A stretch of DNA of 64,000 nucleotides, from sequence record PX880103.1. The stretch is one strand, 5' to 3'. The translations under genes and the position numbers were made by a program. This stretch comes from a phage. Shown here piece by piece: positions 6,846-60,754 of this stretch (the first letter of the stretch is position 1; each line of letters begins with the position of its first letter). The notes under the pieces were generated by a model. That model was not told the origin of the DNA, searched no databases, and was given only the letters and a program-made list of their open reading frames with translations.

Positions 6846-6959
6846 TCACATAAATCCAAAGTAAACGTTTAACACATCAATCATTAAAACGATTGGGAAT
6901 ATACTCAAAACTATTAGTATTATAACTACATTCCATATAGCTTTAATAATCTTTTTCAT
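6846..6959 (-). CDS. Small membrane peptide (37 aa)
   Basis: True ATG follows the promoter cassette GGAGGAACAGAAA; MKKIIKAIWNVVIILIVLSIFPIVLMIDVLNVYFGFM. The track's 82-aa version is the cassette read in frame. Confidence 0.45.
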   Translation of the reverse strand: MKKIIKAIWNVVIILIVLSIFPIVLMIDVLNVYFGFM

Positions 6960-6987
6960 TTTCTGTTCCTCCGTAGTTGATAGGGTA

Positions 6988-7017
6988 ATAGTACCACGGA
7001 AGAACAGTCTTGTAAAC
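6988..7017 (-). promoter_or_regulatory. Early promoter cassette (GTTTAC-N18-TACTAT plus conserved leader)
   Basis: Minus-strand GTTTAC at 7012-7017 and TACTAT at 6988-6993. Confidence 0.6.
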
Positions 7018-7024
7018 AACTTTT

Positions 7025-7123
7025 TTAAAAATATTCGTAATAAATGTGAATACCAACTACTACCGCTGAAACCTGTGCAACCCACCACGCACAAGCAATA
7101 AGTACAGAATTCATAATTTTCAT
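7025..7123 (-). CDS. Small hydrophobic peptide (32 aa)
   Basis: Below track cutoff; SD TGAGG; MKIMNSVLIACAWWVAQVSAVVVGIHIYYEYF. Confidence 0.35.
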   Translation of the reverse strand: MKIMNSVLIACAWWVAQVSAVVVGIHIYYEYF

Positions 7124-7206
7124 AATAACCTCATTACAAAAGTAAATATTAAACAAATTACTGGAATACTAATTAACCAAACAAAACACCACCACAATGA
7201 ACTCAT
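7120..7206 (-). CDS. Small hydrophobic peptide (28 aa)
   Basis: Below track cutoff; MSSLWWCFVWLISIPVICLIFTFVMRLL; overlaps the next start. Confidence 0.3.
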   Translation of the reverse strand: MSSLWWCFVWLISIPVICLIFTFVMRLL

Positions 7207-7263
7207 AGCTCAATCTCAGCGATTTTCATTTCATTCTCCAAATCCGTATCAGTTGATAGTTGT

Positions 7264-7293
7264 ATAGTACCACGGTCCTTGTGGTATGTAAAC
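7264..7293 (-). promoter_or_regulatory. Early promoter cassette with duplicated imm.1 leader and first four codons
   Basis: Minus-strand GTTTAC at 7288-7293 and TACTAT at 7264-7269; leader ...GGAGAATGAAATGAAAATCGCT is identical to the imm.1 start region (33889-33903). Confidence 0.6.
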
Positions 7294-7308
7294 TGTTTTG
7301 TGAATTTT

Positions 7309-7866
7309 TTAAATGAAAAGATACCATCCATTGTAGTTGCTTTTTCTTACAACCTTACGAAGGTCTTCTCTGTCACCGATGAACTTCGGAGTGTACTGGA
7401 TGACACCTGGATGAATTTCTTTAGTGTTGAATATAATTATACAGTCAGCGACTTGATGATTTAGAATGGGCCCTAGATTTATTCCAGAACCGTATGGATA
7501 CTCTCCGCTGCATCCTGTTGTTACAGAAATCCAACGTGAGTCAGTTTGGTGTGTCTTAACTTCTACACGAAGCCCGCAGTATTTTGGATGTGCTAAAACA
7601 TCCCATGCATATGTGTACGGATCATCGACATCTTCTTGGCCTTTATTGACATACCCGCTTAGCCAATCTGCTACAAAAAATTCTGCGTACACAGCGATAC
7701 GGCATCTTTCGATAACTTCTGCCTTATCCTGATTTGGGTTTTGTTTTAAAGAGTATCTTGCAGTATCAGCAATTTTGGCCTTCATTTCACTAGTCAAGTC
7801 ACTGTTCGATAGGGTAAATGACGGAATCTGAAATAGTCTCTGCAAACCCGGATTCGTTTTCTGCAT
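7309..7866 (-). CDS. denB: Endonuclease IV DenB
   Basis: 185 aa as in T4 DenB, between ndd and rIIB; ATG confirmed. Confidence 0.8.
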   Translation of the reverse strand: MQKTNPGLQRLFQIPSFTLSNSDLTSEMKAKIADTARYSLKQNPNQDKAEVIERCRIAVYAEFFVADWLSGYVNKGQEDVDDPYTYAWDVLAHPKYCGLRVEVKTHQTDSRWISVTTGCSGEYPYGSGINLGPILNHQVADCIIIFNTKEIHPGVIQYTPKFIGDREDLRKVVRKSNYNGWYLFI

Positions 7867-8162: not shown

Positions 8163-8178
8163 AAGGGCCGAAGCCCTT
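8163..8178 (-). terminator. GGGCCGAAGCCC-type hairpin overlapping rIIB stop
   Basis: aagggc-cgaa-gccctt; weak T-run, may be an RNA-stability stem rather than a terminator. Confidence 0.4.
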
Positions 8179-9115
8179 ATTTAAATTGTTCAGTAACGTC
8201 TTCAACTACTTCATATTGGCAGGTACGCATTTTAGCATCGTTGTAATCAATCGGAATTGATACTACATCGCGAGGATGAACTTTAACTTTTACAACTCGG
8301 CTGGTTGAACTACCAAAGTGACGAATATAAGATTTAGAACACACATGCAGACCACGAGAACAAGTCTGTGTATCATCGTCATTCACACGAGTACGCGGCA
8401 TTTTAACTACTTTACCCGGACTGTTATCAAAGGTATTTGAGTGACAGTCAAAGTAATTGCTACGAACTACTTTCCAAGCATAGAAGTAACCATCTTCTGT
8501 AATTTCAATATCGTTTGCTACCAAGAAATCAAAGAGTCGAGATACCGCTTTTTGGCTTGGGTTTTCCAACAGATTTTCCAAGAACGGAAAATAAAATTCA
8601 AAGTTTTCGCCTTTTTCCATCGAGTCAAGAATACGATCAACCAAACCAGACCGCAATTCAATATTTTGATAGAACAAGCTTCCACCTTCAATTCGAACAT
8701 CGCCGGAAATATATTTTTCAACAGCACGACGAACATTAATTTTTTGTGCCGCTTCTTCCAACTTATCCGCTACAAGCAGATTAAGAATTTCCTGGAAGTT
8801 TGAATGAGTATTAGGAGTTGCGTTATAAGTTACGCCATCAACAGTAATTGAAATGAATTTTTTAGATGCATTCCAAATAATGTCAGATTTAGCAACTGGA
8901 GCAATAACTGCATCGCTATTAACTTTAACTGTAATATCACCGCTAATAGTAACTTTAGGGTGTTTAGCTTCTTCAGCATTTTTCAAAACACGGCGGATTG
9001 TGTCAACCGATACACCTTGCCAATCAGCCAATTCCTGTTGGGTATAATTACCACTTGAATACAGCTTAACAATTTCAGCTTGTTCGTTTTTGGTCAGGCA
9101 TTTAATATTGTACAT
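8177..9115 (-). CDS. rIIB: rIIB protein
   Basis: 312 aa as in T4 rIIB; adjacent to rIIA; ATG confirmed. Confidence 0.9.
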   Translation of the reverse strand: MYNIKCLTKNEQAEIVKLYSSGNYTQQELADWQGVSVDTIRRVLKNAEEAKHPKVTISGDITVKVNSDAVIAPVAKSDIIWNASKKFISITVDGVTYNATPNTHSNFQEILNLLVADKLEEAAQKINVRRAVEKYISGDVRIEGGSLFYQNIELRSGLVDRILDSMEKGENFEFYFPFLENLLENPSQKAVSRLFDFLVANDIEITEDGYFYAWKVVRSNYFDCHSNTFDNSPGKVVKMPRTRVNDDDTQTCSRGLHVCSKSYIRHFGSSTSRVVKVKVHPRDVVSIPIDYNDAKMRTCQYEVVEDVTEQFK

Positions 9116-9126
9116 AATTTTCCTTA

Positions 9127-11304
9127 TTAGGCCGCAAGGGCCTTCATAGTTTTAGCGATTTGGGAAACTTCATCATCACTTAAAGAGTTGCGATAACCGA
9201 TGAAGTCGGAAACAATACGGAATTTCTTGGTAAACTCAGCAACCATTTTATCACTGTTTTTTGAAGCATTATTTGATAATACATCAAAAAGATTAGTTAC
9301 TGTCCAGATGTCATGACCGATGGTATCTTTTCCACCATTGAAATATACGCCACGTAATGAACTAACTATATTAGCGAGTCGTGTATATTCTTCAGAAACT
9401 TCATCTGTACTGAAGTACTTCATCATAAAATCTAGTTCAGGATACTTGATAATTTTATCAATATATCGTTGAGCTGAACTTGAATAACCTACATACTTAT
9501 CATAATCTACATCATCAAAAGCATCTACATATAAATCACGCAGAGTTTCAAAAATACATTGGCACTGACCGAGTTCTTTTACCTTTTTCTGTAAAAGCGG
9601 ACGAATAACATAAAATTCATTAATGCCAATAAGATTAGCCATACGAATCAAAATATTCATAGATGGATGACAAAGAGATGTAGTACCATCCATAGAGAAA
9701 ATATCAGAACGATGCATATACGCTACATAACCAGTAATTTCATCTGCTTCTGATGTGAGCGTAAATAATTCCTCTTTTTCCCAGCGCCCGTCTTTAATTT
9801 CAAACTTAAATGCTGTAGCAGCTTTAGGACGAGGAGCTTTACTTTTAACTACCTTTGGAATATAACTTTTTACTAAAGCTTCAATTTCTGACAAATAATG
9901 AATGTTAACTTCATCACTTTCAAACATCGCCATAATATCAGGAAGTAAATCAATCTGCGATTCTACTTCTGGATTAATAAACAGAAGGCGTTCGTTATGA
10001 TGAATATTCAAAGTGTTATTAAATTCACTATCATCTAACGCTCGTGCTAATCCACGAACAATATTAACACGATTTTTAATATTATCAATAACGATATTAA
10101 TTTTTGTTGTATTAATACCAAACAGACGATAACTTGATGCAACGGCTGAAGTTTCATGACTTTGCTTAATGCGCTTCAGTCGAGGGTCAAGATTTACTTC
10201 ATACACAACTCCTGCATTGCATAACTTACTGTCAGGTTCAAACATGCTCTGCATCTTTTTATATGACAGATTTTTAGTCGTGAATTTGACTGAATTACTA
10301 ATCATATAATCTCGAGCAGAATACCCCATCTTCATCAATTCACGATATGTGTGACGAGGAGATGTAGATTCTTTAAATCGTTTTACATCTTCATTAAATG
10401 CTTTCTCACTAAGTTCTTTAACTCGTTCAATAATATTTTTACGAGTACGATCATCCAGTGAAAGAGCCTCACGAGATGGAGCAATATCAAGTGAACCCAT
10501 TGGAAACTTAATGTAATTCACTTCATTGCGGATGCTTAACCAGTTACGATCTCTAATAACACCATCGATAGGATAAACAATACCGCCATAGATAGCATAT
10601 AATCCACCGCGATCAGGCCAGTATCTTTCTGGATTTACGCCGTAATAATCATCGAAATCCGGAAAATAATCAATTTCGCGGTCAAGACCATTAATGATAG
10701 CCAAATCTTTGAATGGTCGCATGATATAAGAAACTTCATAAGCAAAGTTTCTAAAGTCTTTTTCTTCAACTGGAACTACGATTTCAATACCAGTTTTATC
10801 ATCTGGACCCATTTCTTTTACGAATGTAGGTTTAATCTGTGGACCATCACCATCCATGTAAGCTACATAACCACGAATTTCACCTTTATGATACGAAGTA
10901 ATACTAAATGTATCAGTATAACTAAACGGAGATTTAGAACCTAAACCAAATCCGCCAATGAAATCGTTAGATTCAGCCTTAGATGAACTGAAGTATGAAT
11001 TATACAGTCCAGGAGAATTATCATCACCCTGAATATCAAAATCACTCATACCCGGACCAAAATCTCGACAAACAAATCGTGGATCTAAACGTCCAGGAAC
11101 TTGTATGATAAATTTTTCAGGATTTCCATTGAGAGCATGGGCATCAATCATGTTAGTAATCAATTCACGAACTACTGCGCGAATCTTGTTTGTATACAAA
11201 TCAGATGACAGAATTTTAAATACTTTAGGAGATGCTGTGATGCTAAATGCTTTTGATTTAGAACCATTACCAAGAATTGTTTCTTTTTCAGTGGTGATAA
11301 TCAT
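9127..11304 (-). CDS. rIIA: rIIA protein
   Basis: 725 aa as in T4 rIIA; ATG confirmed. Confidence 0.9.
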
Positions 11305-11543: not shown

Positions 11544-11573
11544 ATTATACCACATCCTTGTGGTAAAGTAAAC
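11544..11573 (-). promoter_or_regulatory. Early promoter for rIIA.1/rIIA (GTTTAC-N18-TATAAT)
   Basis: Minus strand GTTTACtttaccacaaggatgtggTATAAT; -35 overlaps gene 39 stop. Confidence 0.65.
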
Positions 11574-33098: not shown

Positions 33099-33251
33099 TT
33101 AAACCTCAATTGATACATTCATATTTAACTTGTAACAGTAATAAACTCCAACCTAAAATAATAGTTGGAATCATAAGAGGAACCGTTACACTATAGTATA
33201 TACTTATTATAACCATCAAGATTAAAAGCAACACTGCTATAATTTTGCTTT

Positions 33252-33503
33252 TCATTCCTTCTCTCTGATGATAATTACTTGATTTGGCTGTGCAGACTTT
33301 TTAGTTTCACCCGCAATTGACCAAATAAATGTAATAAACCAACCAATAATTGACCAGTTAAACAGTAAAGACGTGAAAAAGATTCCTACTGTCGATTTTG
33401 ACCCACGCATCAAGGCGATAAACCACGGAAGCATGTATATAATAATAGCCAACACACCTGAAACTAAAACCATAAAAATTGAACCTGCTATTAAAGTTTC
33501 CAT
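33252..33503 (-). CDS. imm: Immunity protein Imm (superinfection exclusion)
   Basis: 83 aa, two TM helices; size as T4 Imm; ATG confirmed. Confidence 0.8.
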   Translation of the reverse strand: METLIAGSIFMVLVSGVLAIIIYMLPWFIALMRGSKSTVGIFFTSLLFNWSIIGWFITFIWSIAGETKKSAQPNQVIIIREKE

Positions 33504-33510
33504 GTTTTCC

Positions 33511-33891
33511 TCACTTAATCAAATTTTTTACACATGAATTATAAGAATTCACTACATACTCCATCGGAGCATTTTTACCAGTACGCCACTGGTAATTATT
33601 AGCCCAATTTGCCCAAAGTTCTGCGCAGTAGTTTTCAATTTTTTCTTCGCGTGTAATTACATCAGAATTACGATATGCTTGAGCAGATTCATCTGGACGA
33701 ATAGCTTCGTCAAAATTCGCCTGCATTTGTTCTACTGTCTGTTTTGGAGCTTCTTTATAACACTTGACATTAGGATTATAAAATTTGCTTGAACAGTTTA
33801 CAATTTTTCCTACATCAGACTGATTTATTACCGGTCCTTGAGCTACACAACCAGTAAGACCTAATGCAATAACCAAAATAGCGATTTTCAT
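33511..33891 (-). CDS. Putative lipoprotein (126 aa, imm.1 position)
   Basis: ATG at 33891 after leader GGAG (track start at 33903 is TTG in the leader); signal peptide MKIAILVIALGLTGC with lipobox. Confidence 0.6.
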   Translation of the reverse strand: MKIAILVIALGLTGCVAQGPVINQSDVGKIVNCSSKFYNPNVKCYKEAPKQTVEQMQANFDEAIRPDESAQAYRNSDVITREEKIENYCAELWANWANNYQWRTGKNAPMEYVVNSYNSCVKNLIK

Positions 33892-33925
33892 TTCATTCTC
33901 CAAATCCGTATCAGTTGATAGTTAT

Positions 33926-33955
33926 ATAGTACCATAGAAGAACAGTCTTGTAAAC
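33926..33955 (-). promoter_or_regulatory. Early promoter cassette (GTTTAC-N18-TACTAT plus conserved leader) for imm.1
   Basis: Minus-strand GTTTAC at 33950-33955 and TACTAT at 33926-33931. Confidence 0.65.
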
Positions 33956-34044
33956 AGTTTTGTGAAAAAATTTTTTAGGGAATTCTAAAGGTCCAGAATC
34001 ATCTGTTTTTCATAAGTATAGATTTATATTACTTGTATGAAAAA

Positions 34045-34060
34045 GGGACCCGGAGGTCCC
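34045..34060 (-). terminator. Hairpin plus T-run after gene 43
   Basis: gggacc-cgga-ggtccc followed on the minus strand by TTTTTCAT. Confidence 0.65.
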
Positions 34061-34073
34061 TAGATTTATTCTA

Positions 34074-36770
34074 TCAGCCAAACAGGAAGTCTAACGAAGC
34101 TTTTTCCTCATAGTCCATACCCGCCGATTCACACATACCCGCAAGCGGTTTAACAAACGATTTTTGGAACAAAGTTGAGTAGTCAATCCAAGACAGTACG
34201 TCAGAACGAATTTCCTTTGGAAGTTCTGTACCCGACGGCCAAGCAATACACTTGTCACCAAATGGATTTCCTTCACGTAATGGAAGAACCATTACTTTAT
34301 TTCCATCCAAAATTGGAGCTACACCTAAACCACTAACAGCTCGACGATAAGTTAGCACACCACGAATATGGAACGGGCATTTAAATCCTGGCCAACCTTT
34401 ATCATCATATTTCGCTATATCGTTCGCAGTTTTTACTTCAGCAATAACTTTATAGTCAAGTTGACGATATTCTTTCTCGAAGTTCTTGTAATATTCTTGG
34501 ACAGACTCTTCACCTTCCTGAAGAATACGACGAATACTTTCTTCGAGAGCTTCTTGCACTGCCTTTGGTGTTGAACTCTGCTGAGTTTCCATACCCATGA
34601 TTTTTAGATGCGGTTCAGCAAATCGCTTATCTTCCATATCATAAACGTTCAGAGCATAACGCTTTTTCGCTTTCCAAAATCCACCAACACCCTTTGAACC
34701 AAGTGGAGGGCAAGAAATAGCTTCACGGTCCATATGCATCAGATGCTCGCGGTTATTCATATAATCACATAACTCACGATATGCAACATCAATCATAGGT
34801 TCCATCTTTTTCTTACCGAACTGATTCATGAATTCAACCAAATCGTTCTGCTCTTTGAATCGGTCAAGACCTACTTTTTCAATAACTTTATCTACGCAAA
34901 CATATACCGAATCAGTATCACCTGCTGCAATGAAATCTTCACCATTAGTTCCGCATACTTTATTCAGATATTCATTAATTTTACGAGCAATCCACTGAAT
35001 ACCAACTTGGCCGAAAATTGTGATAGCAGTAGCATTTCGCAAATCATAGTAACGGAAATGAATATTACCAAGAGCACCATAAAGACTGTTAATAAGAATT
35101 TTACGGTTCAGCTGATTTGTGTTAGCAAGTGTAGCTGCTTTTTCACATTCCTCAATCAGACTATTGAGAACAGATTCAGTATAATTCGATAGCTCATTTA
35201 AGAAATCATCACTGAACTTAACATATCGTTCAACTTCTGGTTTAGTTGAACAGGACCCTGCGCCTTTCATAATAATCTTTTTAATAGCTTCGGCATTCAT
35301 TTCTTCAGCGAACATTTTCTTTTTCCAATCTTTACGCTGGAAAAATACTTTAGCAATTTCCTTTGGAATGATACCTTCTTGATGCTTATCATACATCCAT
35401 CCATTCGGAGAACAAGAATATTCATCACTCGGTTTAGGAGCTGTTCCTGCGATATATTCATGAATTGGATGAACTTTAAACTGCCCACGAATAGTCTCAG
35501 GACTAATGTTAACCTGACGAATAATGCTCGGATACAGAGACGTCAAGTCAAAACTCATAATATATCGACGAGCAATTGGTTTAGGTTCAAATACAAATGC
35601 ACCCGGAAAACTTTGTTTAACGTGCGAACCTTGTTGAGGAATAACCTTATGTTCACCTTTCAATGAGTTAAAAATAATAGCATCCCAAGTTTTAATAGGA
35701 CTCATTACACCAGAAAAAGGCATTTTAGCATAATAAGACATACTTAAAACTAGATCGATAAACCCGCGAATTTTATCAATTGCTTGAACTGATTCTACGT
35801 CAATGATGTTATAACTAATGTATCGTTGATGATTAGTCTCACGAAGTTTATTAATAGGGCCATCATATGGTAATTTACCTTTTTTGGTTTCATGTTGAGC
35901 AACTGATTCCAAAGAGAATGACGGCAAATTAGTAAAAGCGAATTTCTTGTATAAATCTAAATAATCAAGAATAGATACGCCATCAATAGAATAAATTTCT
36001 TTGCTACCGTACATATTTTGAATTAGTTTAGATTTTACTCGACCGATTGGAGAGAAGCGTTTCATACTGCGTTCACCTAGAATCATTTTAACACGATTCA
36101 TGATATATGGAACGTCAAATCCCTCAATATTCCAACCAGTAAAAATAGCAGGTCGTTTCTGTTCCCAGAGATTGATATATTCCATGAGCATATCACGCTC
36201 ATTATCGAATGGCATATAAATTACTCGGTCAAGAATTTCTTGAGGAACTTCATCACCACCTTCACAGTCAAGCTTAGCAGCTAACTTTGCATCCCATTTT
36301 GATACTGAGCCGTACATTGAATTCAAAAGGTCGAAAACATAAAAACGGTCGTCAATTGAATCATAATGAGTGATAGCATCAATTTCATATTCTGCTTTCA
36401 TTGGGTCAGGAAATTTATCACCAGTAACCTCAATGTCACAGTTAGCTACACGAACAAATTTTCGGTCATAAACAATTTCTGAACCATATGTATCACTGAT
36501 ATAAGCGAGTTTAAAATCGTTCATACCGAGAGCTTCGAGACCGATGTCTTCCATTCGCTTCATCCAATCTCGAGCATCTTTCATTGATGGAAATTTTTGA
36601 GGAGCGCAGTTTTTACCATAGATGTCTTTGTATTTTGACTCTTCCTTACAATGCCTAAACATAGTTGGAAGATATTCTACTTCACGAGTACGTTCCTTTC
36701 CATTTTCATCAATATAGCGTTCAACAATATTATTTCCGACTGTTTCGATAGAGATATAAAATTCTTTCAT
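34074..36770 (-). CDS. 43: DNA polymerase gp43 (family B)
   Basis: 898 aa as in T4 gp43; exonuclease and polymerase motifs (e.g. YGDTDS); ATG confirmed. Confidence 0.95.
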   Translation of the reverse strand: MKEFYISIETVGNNIVERYIDENGKERTREVEYLPTMFRHCKEESKYKDIYGKNCAPQKFPSMKDARDWMKRMEDIGLEALGMNDFKLAYISDTYGSEIVYDRKFVRVANCDIEVTGDKFPDPMKAEYEIDAITHYDSIDDRFYVFDLLNSMYGSVSKWDAKLAAKLDCEGGDEVPQEILDRVIYMPFDNERDMLMEYINLWEQKRPAIFTGWNIEGFDVPYIMNRVKMILGERSMKRFSPIGRVKSKLIQNMYGSKEIYSIDGVSILDYLDLYKKFAFTNLPSFSLESVAQHETKKGKLPYDGPINKLRETNHQRYISYNIIDVESVQAIDKIRGFIDLVLSMSYYAKMPFSGVMSPIKTWDAIIFNSLKGEHKVIPQQGSHVKQSFPGAFVFEPKPIARRYIMSFDLTSLYPSIIRQVNISPETIRGQFKVHPIHEYIAGTAPKPSDEYSCSPNGWMYDKHQEGIIPKEIAKVFFQRKDWKKKMFAEEMNAEAIKKIIMKGAGSCSTKPEVERYVKFSDDFLNELSNYTESVLNSLIEECEKAATLANTNQLNRKILINSLYGALGNIHFRYYDLRNATAITIFGQVGIQWIARKINEYLNKVCGTNGEDFIAAGDTDSVYVCVDKVIEKVGLDRFKEQNDLVEFMNQFGKKKMEPMIDVAYRELCDYMNNREHLMHMDREAISCPPLGSKGVGGFWKAKKRYALNVYDMEDKRFAEPHLKIMGMETQQSSTPKAVQEALEESIRRILQEGEESVQEYYKNFEKEYRQLDYKVIAEVKTANDIAKYDDKGWPGFKCPFHIRGVLTYRRAVSGLGVAPILDGNKVMVLPLREGNPFGDKCIAWPSGTELPKEIRSDVLSWIDYSTLFQKSFVKPLAGMCESAGMDYEEKASLDFLFG

Positions 36771-59227: not shown

Positions 59228-59255
59228 TTTGTGTTCCTCCGTAGTTGATAGTTGT

Positions 59256-59691: not shown

Positions 59692-60660
59692 TTATTTCAG
59701 AAGAGTAACCTCAGCAATTTCTTCCCAACCGTTTTTGTCGGTCATAATAAAGTCAGCAAGATAAAGAGCGGTACGCAGTGAAACATTGCGTAAACGGTTA
59801 ACATTGACTTTCATCCATGATAATGCTTTATAAGTTTCTTCATCAGAAAGACCGCGCTTTTGCATCATGTCGGTTGAAAGAATAACATCTTCAACCCTGA
59901 CCATAATTTCTTCATTAGTGTGAACACCCAAATCTAAATAAACTGAGCGGGACACTAATGCTTGTAAATGTGGAGCAAGTTTAGTACCACGGTCTAATTC
60001 GCGGTCAATATCAACGTTTGTGATAAAAACAATTGTTCCTTTAAATTCAAACTCACGATCAATGCCTTTTTCTTCTAAGTAAGAAGATGCAGTGCTCCAG
60101 CAGACTTTACGGGTCTCTCCAGTGTCCAGAGCAGCTTTCAGAAGATTAAGAATGTCCATATCAGAAAAAACATCCACATCATCAATCAAAAGGACAGAAT
60201 TCTCTTCACGATTATTCCAAAGCTGCTCATAAAGACCGATACCAGAGATTTTACCATTAATGCTTTTATACTCAATGTATCCAATATCATTTGCTTTATT
60301 CAAAGCTTTATCTAAAGAATACGTTTTACCAATACCCGCCGCACCAGAGATAATTAATGAACGAATATTTCCGTTAATAATACCATTCGTCATCATTCCC
60401 ATAACATTAAATCTTTTATTAATGCGGGTTTTCATATCTTCATATGATTCTTTAACTTCTTCAACTTTTACACCATCATATGAAATGTCTGATTTATAAA
60501 CCCAAACACCGCGACGTTTACCATCAATTTCAACAAAAACTTTACCGTCTCCTTGTGCATCTACCGGAGCATTATCTGGGAACCATTCGCCTAAGAGTTC
60601 AAAGGTTCCAGAGATTTCTTTACCGAAGTAGATACCCTTATTGATAGTTACAGTTTTCAT
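59692..60660 (-). CDS. P-loop ATPase (322 aa; Walker A GAAGIGKT, Walker B LLIDDVD)
   Basis: ATG at 60660 after leader GGAGAATAAA (MKTVTINKG...); the track N-terminus is the translated cassette. Confidence 0.6.
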   Translation of the reverse strand: MKTVTINKGIYFGKEISGTFELLGEWFPDNAPVDAQGDGKVFVEIDGKRRGVWVYKSDISYDGVKVEEVKESYEDMKTRINKRFNVMGMMTNGIINGNIRSLIISGAAGIGKTYSLDKALNKANDIGYIEYKSINGKISGIGLYEQLWNNREENSVLLIDDVDVFSDMDILNLLKAALDTGETRKVCWSTASSYLEEKGIDREFEFKGTIVFITNVDIDRELDRGTKLAPHLQALVSRSVYLDLGVHTNEEIMVRVEDVILSTDMMQKRGLSDEETYKALSWMKVNVNRLRNVSLRTALYLADFIMTDKNGWEEIAEVTLLK

Positions 60661-60694
60661 TTTATTCTCCAAATCCGTATCAGTTGATAGTTGT

Positions 60695-60724
60695 ATAGTA
60701 CCATAAAGCTTTATGCTTGTAAAC
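60695..60724 (-). promoter_or_regulatory. Early promoter cassette (GTTTAC-N18-TACTAT plus conserved leader) for the ATPase gene
   Basis: Minus-strand GTTTAC at 60719-60724 and TACTAT at 60695-60700. Confidence 0.65.
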
Positions 60725-60754
60725 AACTTTGTGAAAAATTTTTGAAATAAAAAA

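Follow-up and report, generated by a model that had tools for sequence, protein, structure and literature searches.

The promoter-early stem-loop (PeSL) cassettes of T4-type phages end in a Shine-Dalgarno sequence (SD) followed by a start codon, and crossovers at these cassettes have been mapped between the -10 element and the ATG (Arbiol et al. 2010, PMC2839356). For the T4/PST group, Comeau et al. (2014, PMC4122927) give the PeSL consensus TTTACW-N17-TAYWAT, use the ndd region, compared between T4 and PST, as an example (their Fig. 6A), and note that short homologies arising by chance outside PeSLs take part in some events. Albertini et al. 1982 is cited in PMC4122927 for spontaneous deletions between short direct repeats.

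Here we describe a site of this general kind in a 64,000-nucleotide stretch of phage DNA (sequence record PX880103.1; "the window" denotes this whole stretch). The window is from a T4-like phage (Tequatrovirus); it shares ~95-97% identity with its best matches among phage-collection records and is identical to none of them. Downstream of denB, on the minus strand, an early promoter and its leader are followed by an ORF of only eight codons, whose start region is repeated at imm.1. We propose, with a probability of roughly 0.8, that this short ORF is a deletion scar: the promoter module is resident; 237 nt of a gene termed here ORF-B were lost in frame; and the resemblance to imm.1 reflects a paralogous module at which another gene, ORF-C, was lost separately.

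Results

Gene order and the promoter module downstream of denB

The minus strand carries, in order, rIIA, rIIB, denB.1, denB, a run of tiny membrane-protein genes (ndd.6, ndd.5, ndd.4 etc.) and ndd, and the partner site at imm.1 is located between gene 43 and imm (Table 1).

Table 1. Features of the window at the denB-downstream site and at its paralogous sites
Feature	Position	Strand	Basis or content
ndd.5, 32 aa	7025..7123	minus	annotated in T4, PP01, RB18; phrog_5011
ndd.6, 28 aa, hydrophobic	7120..7206	minus	annotated in T4, PP01; phrog_8851
8-codon ORF, MKIAEIEL-stop	7203..7229	minus	comparison of states, T4/RB18 vs HP3, B1.1, PP01, T2, T4_ev240, WL-3
Module leader, transcribed, AACTATCAACTGATACGGATTTGGAGAATGAA	7230..7261	minus	part of the 44-nt identity with 33880-33923
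Resident early promoter	7264..7292	minus	promoter scan; -35 TTTACA 7292-7287, -10 TACTAT 7269-7264
denB, endonuclease IV, 185 aa	7309..7866	minus	ORF list; orthologues annotated denB in PP01, RB18, T4
rIIB	8177-9115	minus	
rIIA	9127-11304	minus	
imm	33252-33503		
imm.1, 126 aa, lipoprotein-like N-terminus MKIAILVIALGLTGC	33511..33891	minus	ATG at 33891; T4 annotation imm.1
Paralogous module downstream of gene 43	33880..33976	minus	-35 33954-33949, -10 33931-33926, leader, SD, first four imm.1 codons
Gene 43	34074-36770		
Third long-leader module copy	60626..60745	minus	upstream of gene starting MKTVTINKG

The denB stop codon falls within the AT-rich upstream part of a promoter module that resembles PeSLs in several respects: it has an AT-rich stretch, TTTAAAAAATTCACAAAAC, upstream of the promoter elements; these elements read TTTACA-17-TACTAT with a TG extension (7292-7264); its 3' end consists of an SD (GGAG, 7239-7236) placed 6 nt upstream of an ATG (7229); and the module is present in multiple copies (at least six in 64 kb) that lie in hyperplastic regions. 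The 17-nt spacer between the promoter elements is of the ATACCACAAGGACCGTGG type, and it contains a 6-bp inverted repeat, TACCAC/GTGGTA (7268-7286), that overlaps the TG-extended -10; this is at best a weak fit to the stem-loop, a terminator or attenuator, of a PeSL. Spacers of the CCACAAGGATGTGG kind, similar to 7268-7286, also occur at promoters near 11573 and 56317. Our scan found no terminator-like hairpin in 6900-7500; the module copy downstream of gene 43 has a terminator ~90 nt upstream.

The early-promoter architecture scan located at least six minus-strand copies of the module in the window (~60690, 59251, 33921, 7259, 6983 and 3842), all of which have a GTTTAC -35 region, a TGGTACTAT -10 region and a leader that begins with CTATCAAC. 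The copies differ in their leaders: a long leader, CTATCAACTGATACGGATTTGGAGAAT[A/G]AAATG, is found downstream of denB, downstream of gene 43 and near 60690; a short leader, CTATCAACTACGGAGGAACA.AAAATG, is found near 59251, upstream of a minus-strand gene starting MNAKDIFNL, and near 6983 (ndd.4); and a related leader precedes motA (~3842). Between TGGTACTATA, in the -10 region, and ATGAAAA, the denB-downstream site and the copy near 60690 agree at 49 of 50 positions, with one mismatch. An IMG/VR contig (IMGVR_UViG_3300045988_128797) shows a breakpoint inside the leader: immediately behind CTATCAA, its orthologue of the promoter near 60690 continues into another leader and another gene (MKITPIEV...).

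An earlier interpretation of this locus, made from the letters of the window alone (the sequence-only reading), had assigned both the promoter and the leader to imm.1. The leader belongs instead to the module family described above. The 17-nt spacer downstream of denB is almost wholly unlike that of the imm.1 promoter and is the same, and orthologous, in every relative examined; the promoter is therefore resident at this site rather than imported.

Two further ORFs bear on annotation of these regions. A 42-codon ORF (7203-7331, minus strand) starts within denB and crosses the promoter into the eight-codon frame; RB18 lists it as a CDS (RB18ORF269), PP01 and B1.1 list extended versions, and all of these entries are probably artefacts of annotation. 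A 49-codon hydrophobic ORF (33106-33255, minus strand), the ATG of which overlaps the imm stop codon, lies between imm and gene 42 and is annotated in HP3; T4 (NC_000866) has an unannotated 153-nt gap at this place.

Identity between the denB-downstream and imm.1 sites

The window contains the 22-mer GGAGAATGAAATGAAAATCGCT at exactly two places, 7218-7239 and 33880-33901 (both on the minus strand), and 100 dinucleotide-preserving shuffles gave an expectation of 0 matches, even with three mismatches allowed. The exact identity between the two sites covers 44 nt of the minus strand (7261 to 7218 and 33923 to 33880); beyond this block, after a single mismatch, ten further identical bases cover the -10 box, so that 54 of 55 positions agree; and at the other end the identity stops right after codon 4 (GCT). 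The match between the two sites is confirmed as a real one and not a product of chance.

The sequence-only reading holds in its description of the letters: 7218-7239 is identical to the translation start region of imm.1, and the match is exact and longer than had been claimed; the two sites diverge after the fourth codon; the frame encodes MKIAEIEL and overlaps a 28-codon hydrophobic ORF; and the identity runs through codon 4 rather than being limited to the SD and the ATG. The coordinates given for the partner site (33889-33903) are slightly off, as the imm.1 ATG is at 33891 and the TTG at 33903 merely opens a mechanical ORF.

ORF-B and the four states of the interval

Comparison with relatives revealed four states between the denB-downstream promoter and ndd.6. 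In state 0 (T4, RB18, IME340 and the window), the promoter, leader and SD are followed by the eight-codon ORF; state A (PP01 and T2) has a 68-codon ORF-A, then 5 nt, then MKIVEIEL-stop; state B (HP3, B1.1 and four IMG/VR contigs) has an 87-codon ORF-B (MKFKFYYAKHK...AINSNEMKI[A/V]EIEL-stop); and state AB (T4_ev240, WL-3 and ADUt) has ORF-A followed by ORF-B. The eight-codon frame of the window reads ATG AAA ATC GCT GAG ATT GAG CTA TGA (7229 to 7203), and its TGA overlaps the ATG of ndd.6 as ATGA (7206-7203); a second ATGA overlap joins the TGA of ndd.6 to the ATG of ndd.5. The ORF-B of states B and AB ends in the same eight codons, as its residues 80-87 and in frame, and has the same ATGA overlap with ndd.6.

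ORF-B matches phrog_2390 over profile positions 1-87 of 87 (E = 1e-46), and the PHROG families of ORF-A, ORF-B and imm.1 are all listed under "unknown function". By tblastn, ORF-B was found in 663 phage records, in 662 of them at full length. In our census, which was made on the INPHARED collection, allele 1 of ORF-B was present in 269 records and ORF-A in ~118, and the state-0 junction, counted with a 40-nt junction query in blastn mode, was present in 24 of ~474 matching records, most of which are isolates of T4; IMG/VR contributed six contigs with the ndd.6 pattern.

Most Tequatroviruses, as well as three other genera, carry ORF-B between the denB-downstream promoter and ndd.6. In ECO4, a divergent Tequatrovirus allele has the tail ...LEIAEIEL-stop, encoded by TTG GAA ATC GCT GAG ATT GAA CTA TGA; as ATCGCT is present in this allele with TTGGAA in place of ATGAAA, ATCGCT belongs to ORF-B. 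The corresponding tails are ...MELAEVEI-stop in ST0 (Mosigvirus), ...MEIKEIVL-stop in JS98 (Dhakavirus) and ...IEIKEVIF-stop in P896 (Gaprivervirus), and the stop codon of ORF-B overlaps the start codon of the ndd.6 homologue as ATGA or TTGA in HP3, ECO4, ST0, JS98 and P896. Since full-length homologues with a homologous tail and the ndd.6 overlap exist in Mosigvirus, Dhakavirus and Gaprivervirus, the undeleted ORF-B is ancestral, in line with the low share of state 0 (24 of 474 records); and since P896 also carries ORF-A upstream of ORF-B, the AB arrangement is ancestral as well.

The comparison of the ndd-denB interval among relatives, which the sequence-only reading had itself suggested, overturns the imm.1 origin proposed there. 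The four codons that had been attributed to imm.1 are residues 80-83 of ORF-B in states B and AB, and ATCGCT recurs in the divergent allele; all eight codons, rather than being a fusion to an unrelated tiny ORF, are the native C-terminus of an 87-codon gene; and the supposed remnant of a gene start is instead the end of a gene joined to the SD and ATG of the module. A transfer of the imm.1 promoter, leader and first four codons into the denB-ndd interval by recombination, creating a chimeric start on an unrelated short sequence, would account for an exact 44-nt identity that runs through codon 4 and ends there, and for the presence of the same leader variant (without ACT, with G at -4) at both loci of the window and of IME340. 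We nevertheless consider such a transfer highly improbable: the promoter spacer is the resident one and not that of imm.1; the eight codons form the C-terminus of ORF-B in phages where at least 237 nt separate them from any leader; ATCGCT GAG ATT GAA CTA TGA is also present in the divergent ORF-B allele that has TTGGAA and not ATGAAA; and the tail is conserved in four other lineages.

The deletion junction at the ndd.6 locus

State 0 lacks exactly 237 nt, corresponding to 79 codons, in frame (393 vs 156 nt between the same anchors). The start of ORF-B reads ...GGAGAATAAAATGAAATTT, and the sequence eight codons before its stop reads ...AGTAATGAAATGAAAATCGCT; both sites share AAT[A/G]AAATGAAA, i.e. 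12 nt with one mismatch, 8 nt of which are exact. One repeat, AATAAAATGAAA, is located at the start of ORF-B and the other, AATGAAATGAAA, eight codons ahead of its stop; B1.1 and HP3 have the arrangement GGAGAATAAAATGAAA...AGTAATGAAATGAAA, and T4 and the window retain one copy. The junction falls within AATGAAATGAAA, at 7235-7224 of the window, and has the hallmarks of a short-direct-repeat deletion in which one repeat doubles as a translation-initiation region.

The junction occurs in two variants at position -4: A in T4 and RB18, and G in the window and IME340. The G variant is the native Glu codon of ORF-B (AAT GAA ATG), and a mismatched heteroduplex over the repeat could yield either variant. 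With the G variant, an additional AUG AAA UGA arises out of frame, overlapping the true start codon (GGAGAAUGAAAUGAAA; 7230-7235 and 33892-33897, minus strand); the spacing of this AUG from the SD is probably too short for use.

We propose the following course of events. The resident early module (AT-rich stretch, -35, -10, ~35-nt leader, SD GGAG and ATG) would drive ORF-B in most relatives, in some of which ORF-A precedes ORF-B; in the lineage of T4, RB18, IME340 and the window, 79 codons of ORF-B would have been deleted in frame between AATAAAATGAAA and AATGAAATGAAA; and the product would be an SD-ATG joined to the last codons of ORF-B, encoding MKIAEIEL-stop. The sequence-only reading had recognized a recombination junction here, and a deletion junction beside a repeated promoter cassette is what we find; however, the junction does not lie between cassette copies, as had been supposed, because one endpoint is in the coding sequence of ORF-B. 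Taken as a whole, that interpretation is partly supported.

The imm.1 locus and exchange between the loci

The interval from gene 43 to imm.1 (33880-34061 of the window, minus strand) also varies among relatives. In ADUt, PP01, RB18 and HP3, a 78-codon ORF-C (ATGAAAATTGTT..., MKIVMGCLAV...) separates imm.1 from the leader, and in T2 another ORF, ORF-D, does so, behind a short-type leader; in phages with ORF-C or ORF-D, imm.1 has its own SD, GAGGAAATTATT, and still starts with ATGAAAATCGCT. ORF-C is absent from T4, IME340 and the window, in which the junction is inside ATGAAAAT, and the ORF-C-less arrangement of imm.1 was found in ~11 of 39 sampled records. In the window, imm.1 thus directly adjoins the module because the intervening ORF of other phages is absent; and because imm.1 keeps ATGAAAATCGCT behind its own SD in phages with ORF-C or ORF-D, ATGAAAATCGCT is native to the imm.1 start as well as to the ORF-B tail.

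We infer that ORF-C was lost separately, at the microhomology ATGAAAAT, and that this loss placed the leader directly before ATGAAAATCGCT, the native start of imm.1. The 44-nt identity is then best read as the sum of three parts: the shared module, ATGAAA(AT) at both junctions, and four to six further bases (ATCGCT) that each downstream sequence already possessed. T4, the window and IME340 all have G at -4 in the imm.1 junction, a feature that a simple deletion of ORF-C does not explain.

In a contig of IMG/VR (IMGVR_UViG_2938479101_000006), which carries the CTAATAC allele of the leader and the A variant (GGAGAATAAAATGAAAATCGCT), imm.1 follows the leader with no ORF in between; either the ORF-C-less state arose more than once, or the leader recombined afterwards. 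G at -4 was also considered as a diagnostic of the imm.1 state-0 junction, a use that this A variant weakens.

Another explanation for the resemblance of the two loci, which lie 27 kb apart, is that modules and first codons were exchanged between them by ectopic gene conversion, the leader-ATGAAAATCGCT junction of one locus acting as donor and templating the loss of the ORF at the other. With the promoter and leader as the left homology and 12-18 nt of ATGAAAATCGCT as the right homology, such an event would remove the intervening ORF and copy the G; for instance, the G-bearing leader-ATGAAAATCGCT junction of the ORF-B deletion may have been copied before imm.1, removing ORF-C, or the reverse may have occurred. 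The distribution of leader variants is in part consistent with this explanation: G at -4 is present in five of seven state-0 junctions and in 0 of ~17 leaders preceding ORF-A, ORF-B or ORF-C, and it is the base of the native ORF-B Glu codon; the ACT insertion is in both leaders of T4 and the rare CTAATAC in both leaders of ADUt; the window and IME340 are each identical at both loci; and the "ACT+ CAG" allele is found downstream of denB in RB18 and downstream of gene 43 in PP01. However, the concordance of leaders within genomes is not significant (permutation p ~0.11, 7 genomes), additional IMG/VR contigs are mostly discordant, the imm.1 state-0 junction of one contig has A and not G, and a single A/G site together with shared ancestry could produce the pattern. 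We therefore regard ectopic conversion as unlikely.

Some earlier contact between the loci may still be considered. Of 13 minus-strand ATGAAAAT sites in the window, only two continue with CG, and it is unlikely that the additional identity beyond ATGAAAAT (CGCT; 18 nt, AATGAAATGAAAATCGCT, counting the G variant) arose by pure chance; an old exchange between the denB-downstream and imm.1 loci is possible. If ectopic conversion had taken place, the 44-nt identity would reflect recent concerted evolution and not shared module ancestry plus coincidence.

Function of the eight-codon remnant

Overlapping stop and start codons (AUGA) are associated with translational coupling in polycistronic phage and bacterial mRNAs. 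The arrangement downstream of denB resembles such coupled cistrons, in that AUGA links the eight-codon ORF to ndd.6 and ndd.6 to ndd.5, and the ORF-B/ndd.6 overlap is conserved across genera; it differs in that the upstream cistron has here shrunk to eight codons, and the coupling is putative. As one of the two repeats is the translation-initiation region, the deletion left an in-frame mini-gene with a strong SD and a stop/start overlap downstream. The SD before the ATG of this mini-gene is near-ideal (GGAG, 6-nt spacing); the frame is intact in all state-0 phages (T4, RB18, IME340 and the window); and ndd.6 otherwise has a weak GAG ~8 nt upstream of its start.

The remnant likely delivers ribosomes to ndd.6 via the AUGA overlap, as judged from these signals: the strong SD would load ribosomes onto the eight-codon frame; the ribosomes would terminate at the UGA within AUGA; and they would re-initiate on ndd.6 and then on ndd.5. 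The scar would thereby retain the translational coupling that was once given by full-length ORF-B. The suggestion, made in the sequence-only reading, that the tiny ORF is a gene remnant which may aid translation downstream is in line with this proposal, the gene in question being ORF-B.

Alternatively, the eight-codon frame could be an inert scar, with ndd.6 initiating independently and the deletion endpoints just following microhomology. In keeping with this alternative, the endpoints coincide exactly with the sole 8-12-nt repeat available; the weak GAG that precedes the ndd.6 ATG could be enough without the upstream frame; and the predicted RNA structure of the leader, mini-ORF and ndd.6 start is not significant, showing no difference from shuffles (z = -0.67). 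We find the inert scar somewhat doubtful, given the near-ideal SD on the frame, the intactness of the frame in T4, RB18, IME340 and the window, and the retention of the ndd.6 stop/start overlap across at least five lineages.

A very short ORF with a strong SD at the 5' end of an operon is also reminiscent of leader-peptide or attenuator uORFs, but here terminators or alternative hairpins do not follow, and the peptide is the tail of a lost gene. An attenuator or riboswitch was considered and rejected on the basis of the same fold score (z = -0.67) and of the scan, which found no terminator-like site. Judging from the published specificity of RegB, the GGAG of the leader is a plausible candidate for RegB cleavage.

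Discussion

The scar that we describe adds to the known cases of gene shuffling, by PeSLs or short repeats, among T4-type phages; shuffling of modules at the promoter/SD/ATG cassettes of these regions has already been published, and the mechanism that the scar reveals is not new. As at PeSLs, which adjoin insertions, deletions and replacements of ORFs among close relatives, indels adjoin the module (ORF-A/ORF-B after denB, and ORF-C/ORF-D after gene 43). In contrast to an excision between two PeSLs, in which flanking cassettes recombine and a mini-circle is released, only one endpoint of the ORF-B deletion is in the module (SD-ATGAAA), whereas the other is in the coding sequence of ORF-B; the deletion is therefore of a mixed type.

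Singer and Westlye reportedly described, in 1988, deletions between short direct repeats in the rII region of T4. The ORF-B deletion resembles deletions of this class in that the missing 237 nt are bordered on both sides by imperfect direct repeats of 12 nt, 8 nt of which are exact, and that a single copy survives; it is distinguished from them in that one of the repeats is here a translation-initiation region.

Our analysis explains why T4 has an unannotated 106-nt "intergenic" stretch between denB and ndd.6, namely as the scar left by the loss of a gene, and it carries a caution for annotators, as ORFs of 42 codons and longer have been called across the denB-downstream promoter in several records. 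The locus also provides a base-resolved case of how small accessory genes are lost from T4-type phages at translation-initiation microhomologies without loss of the downstream expression signals.
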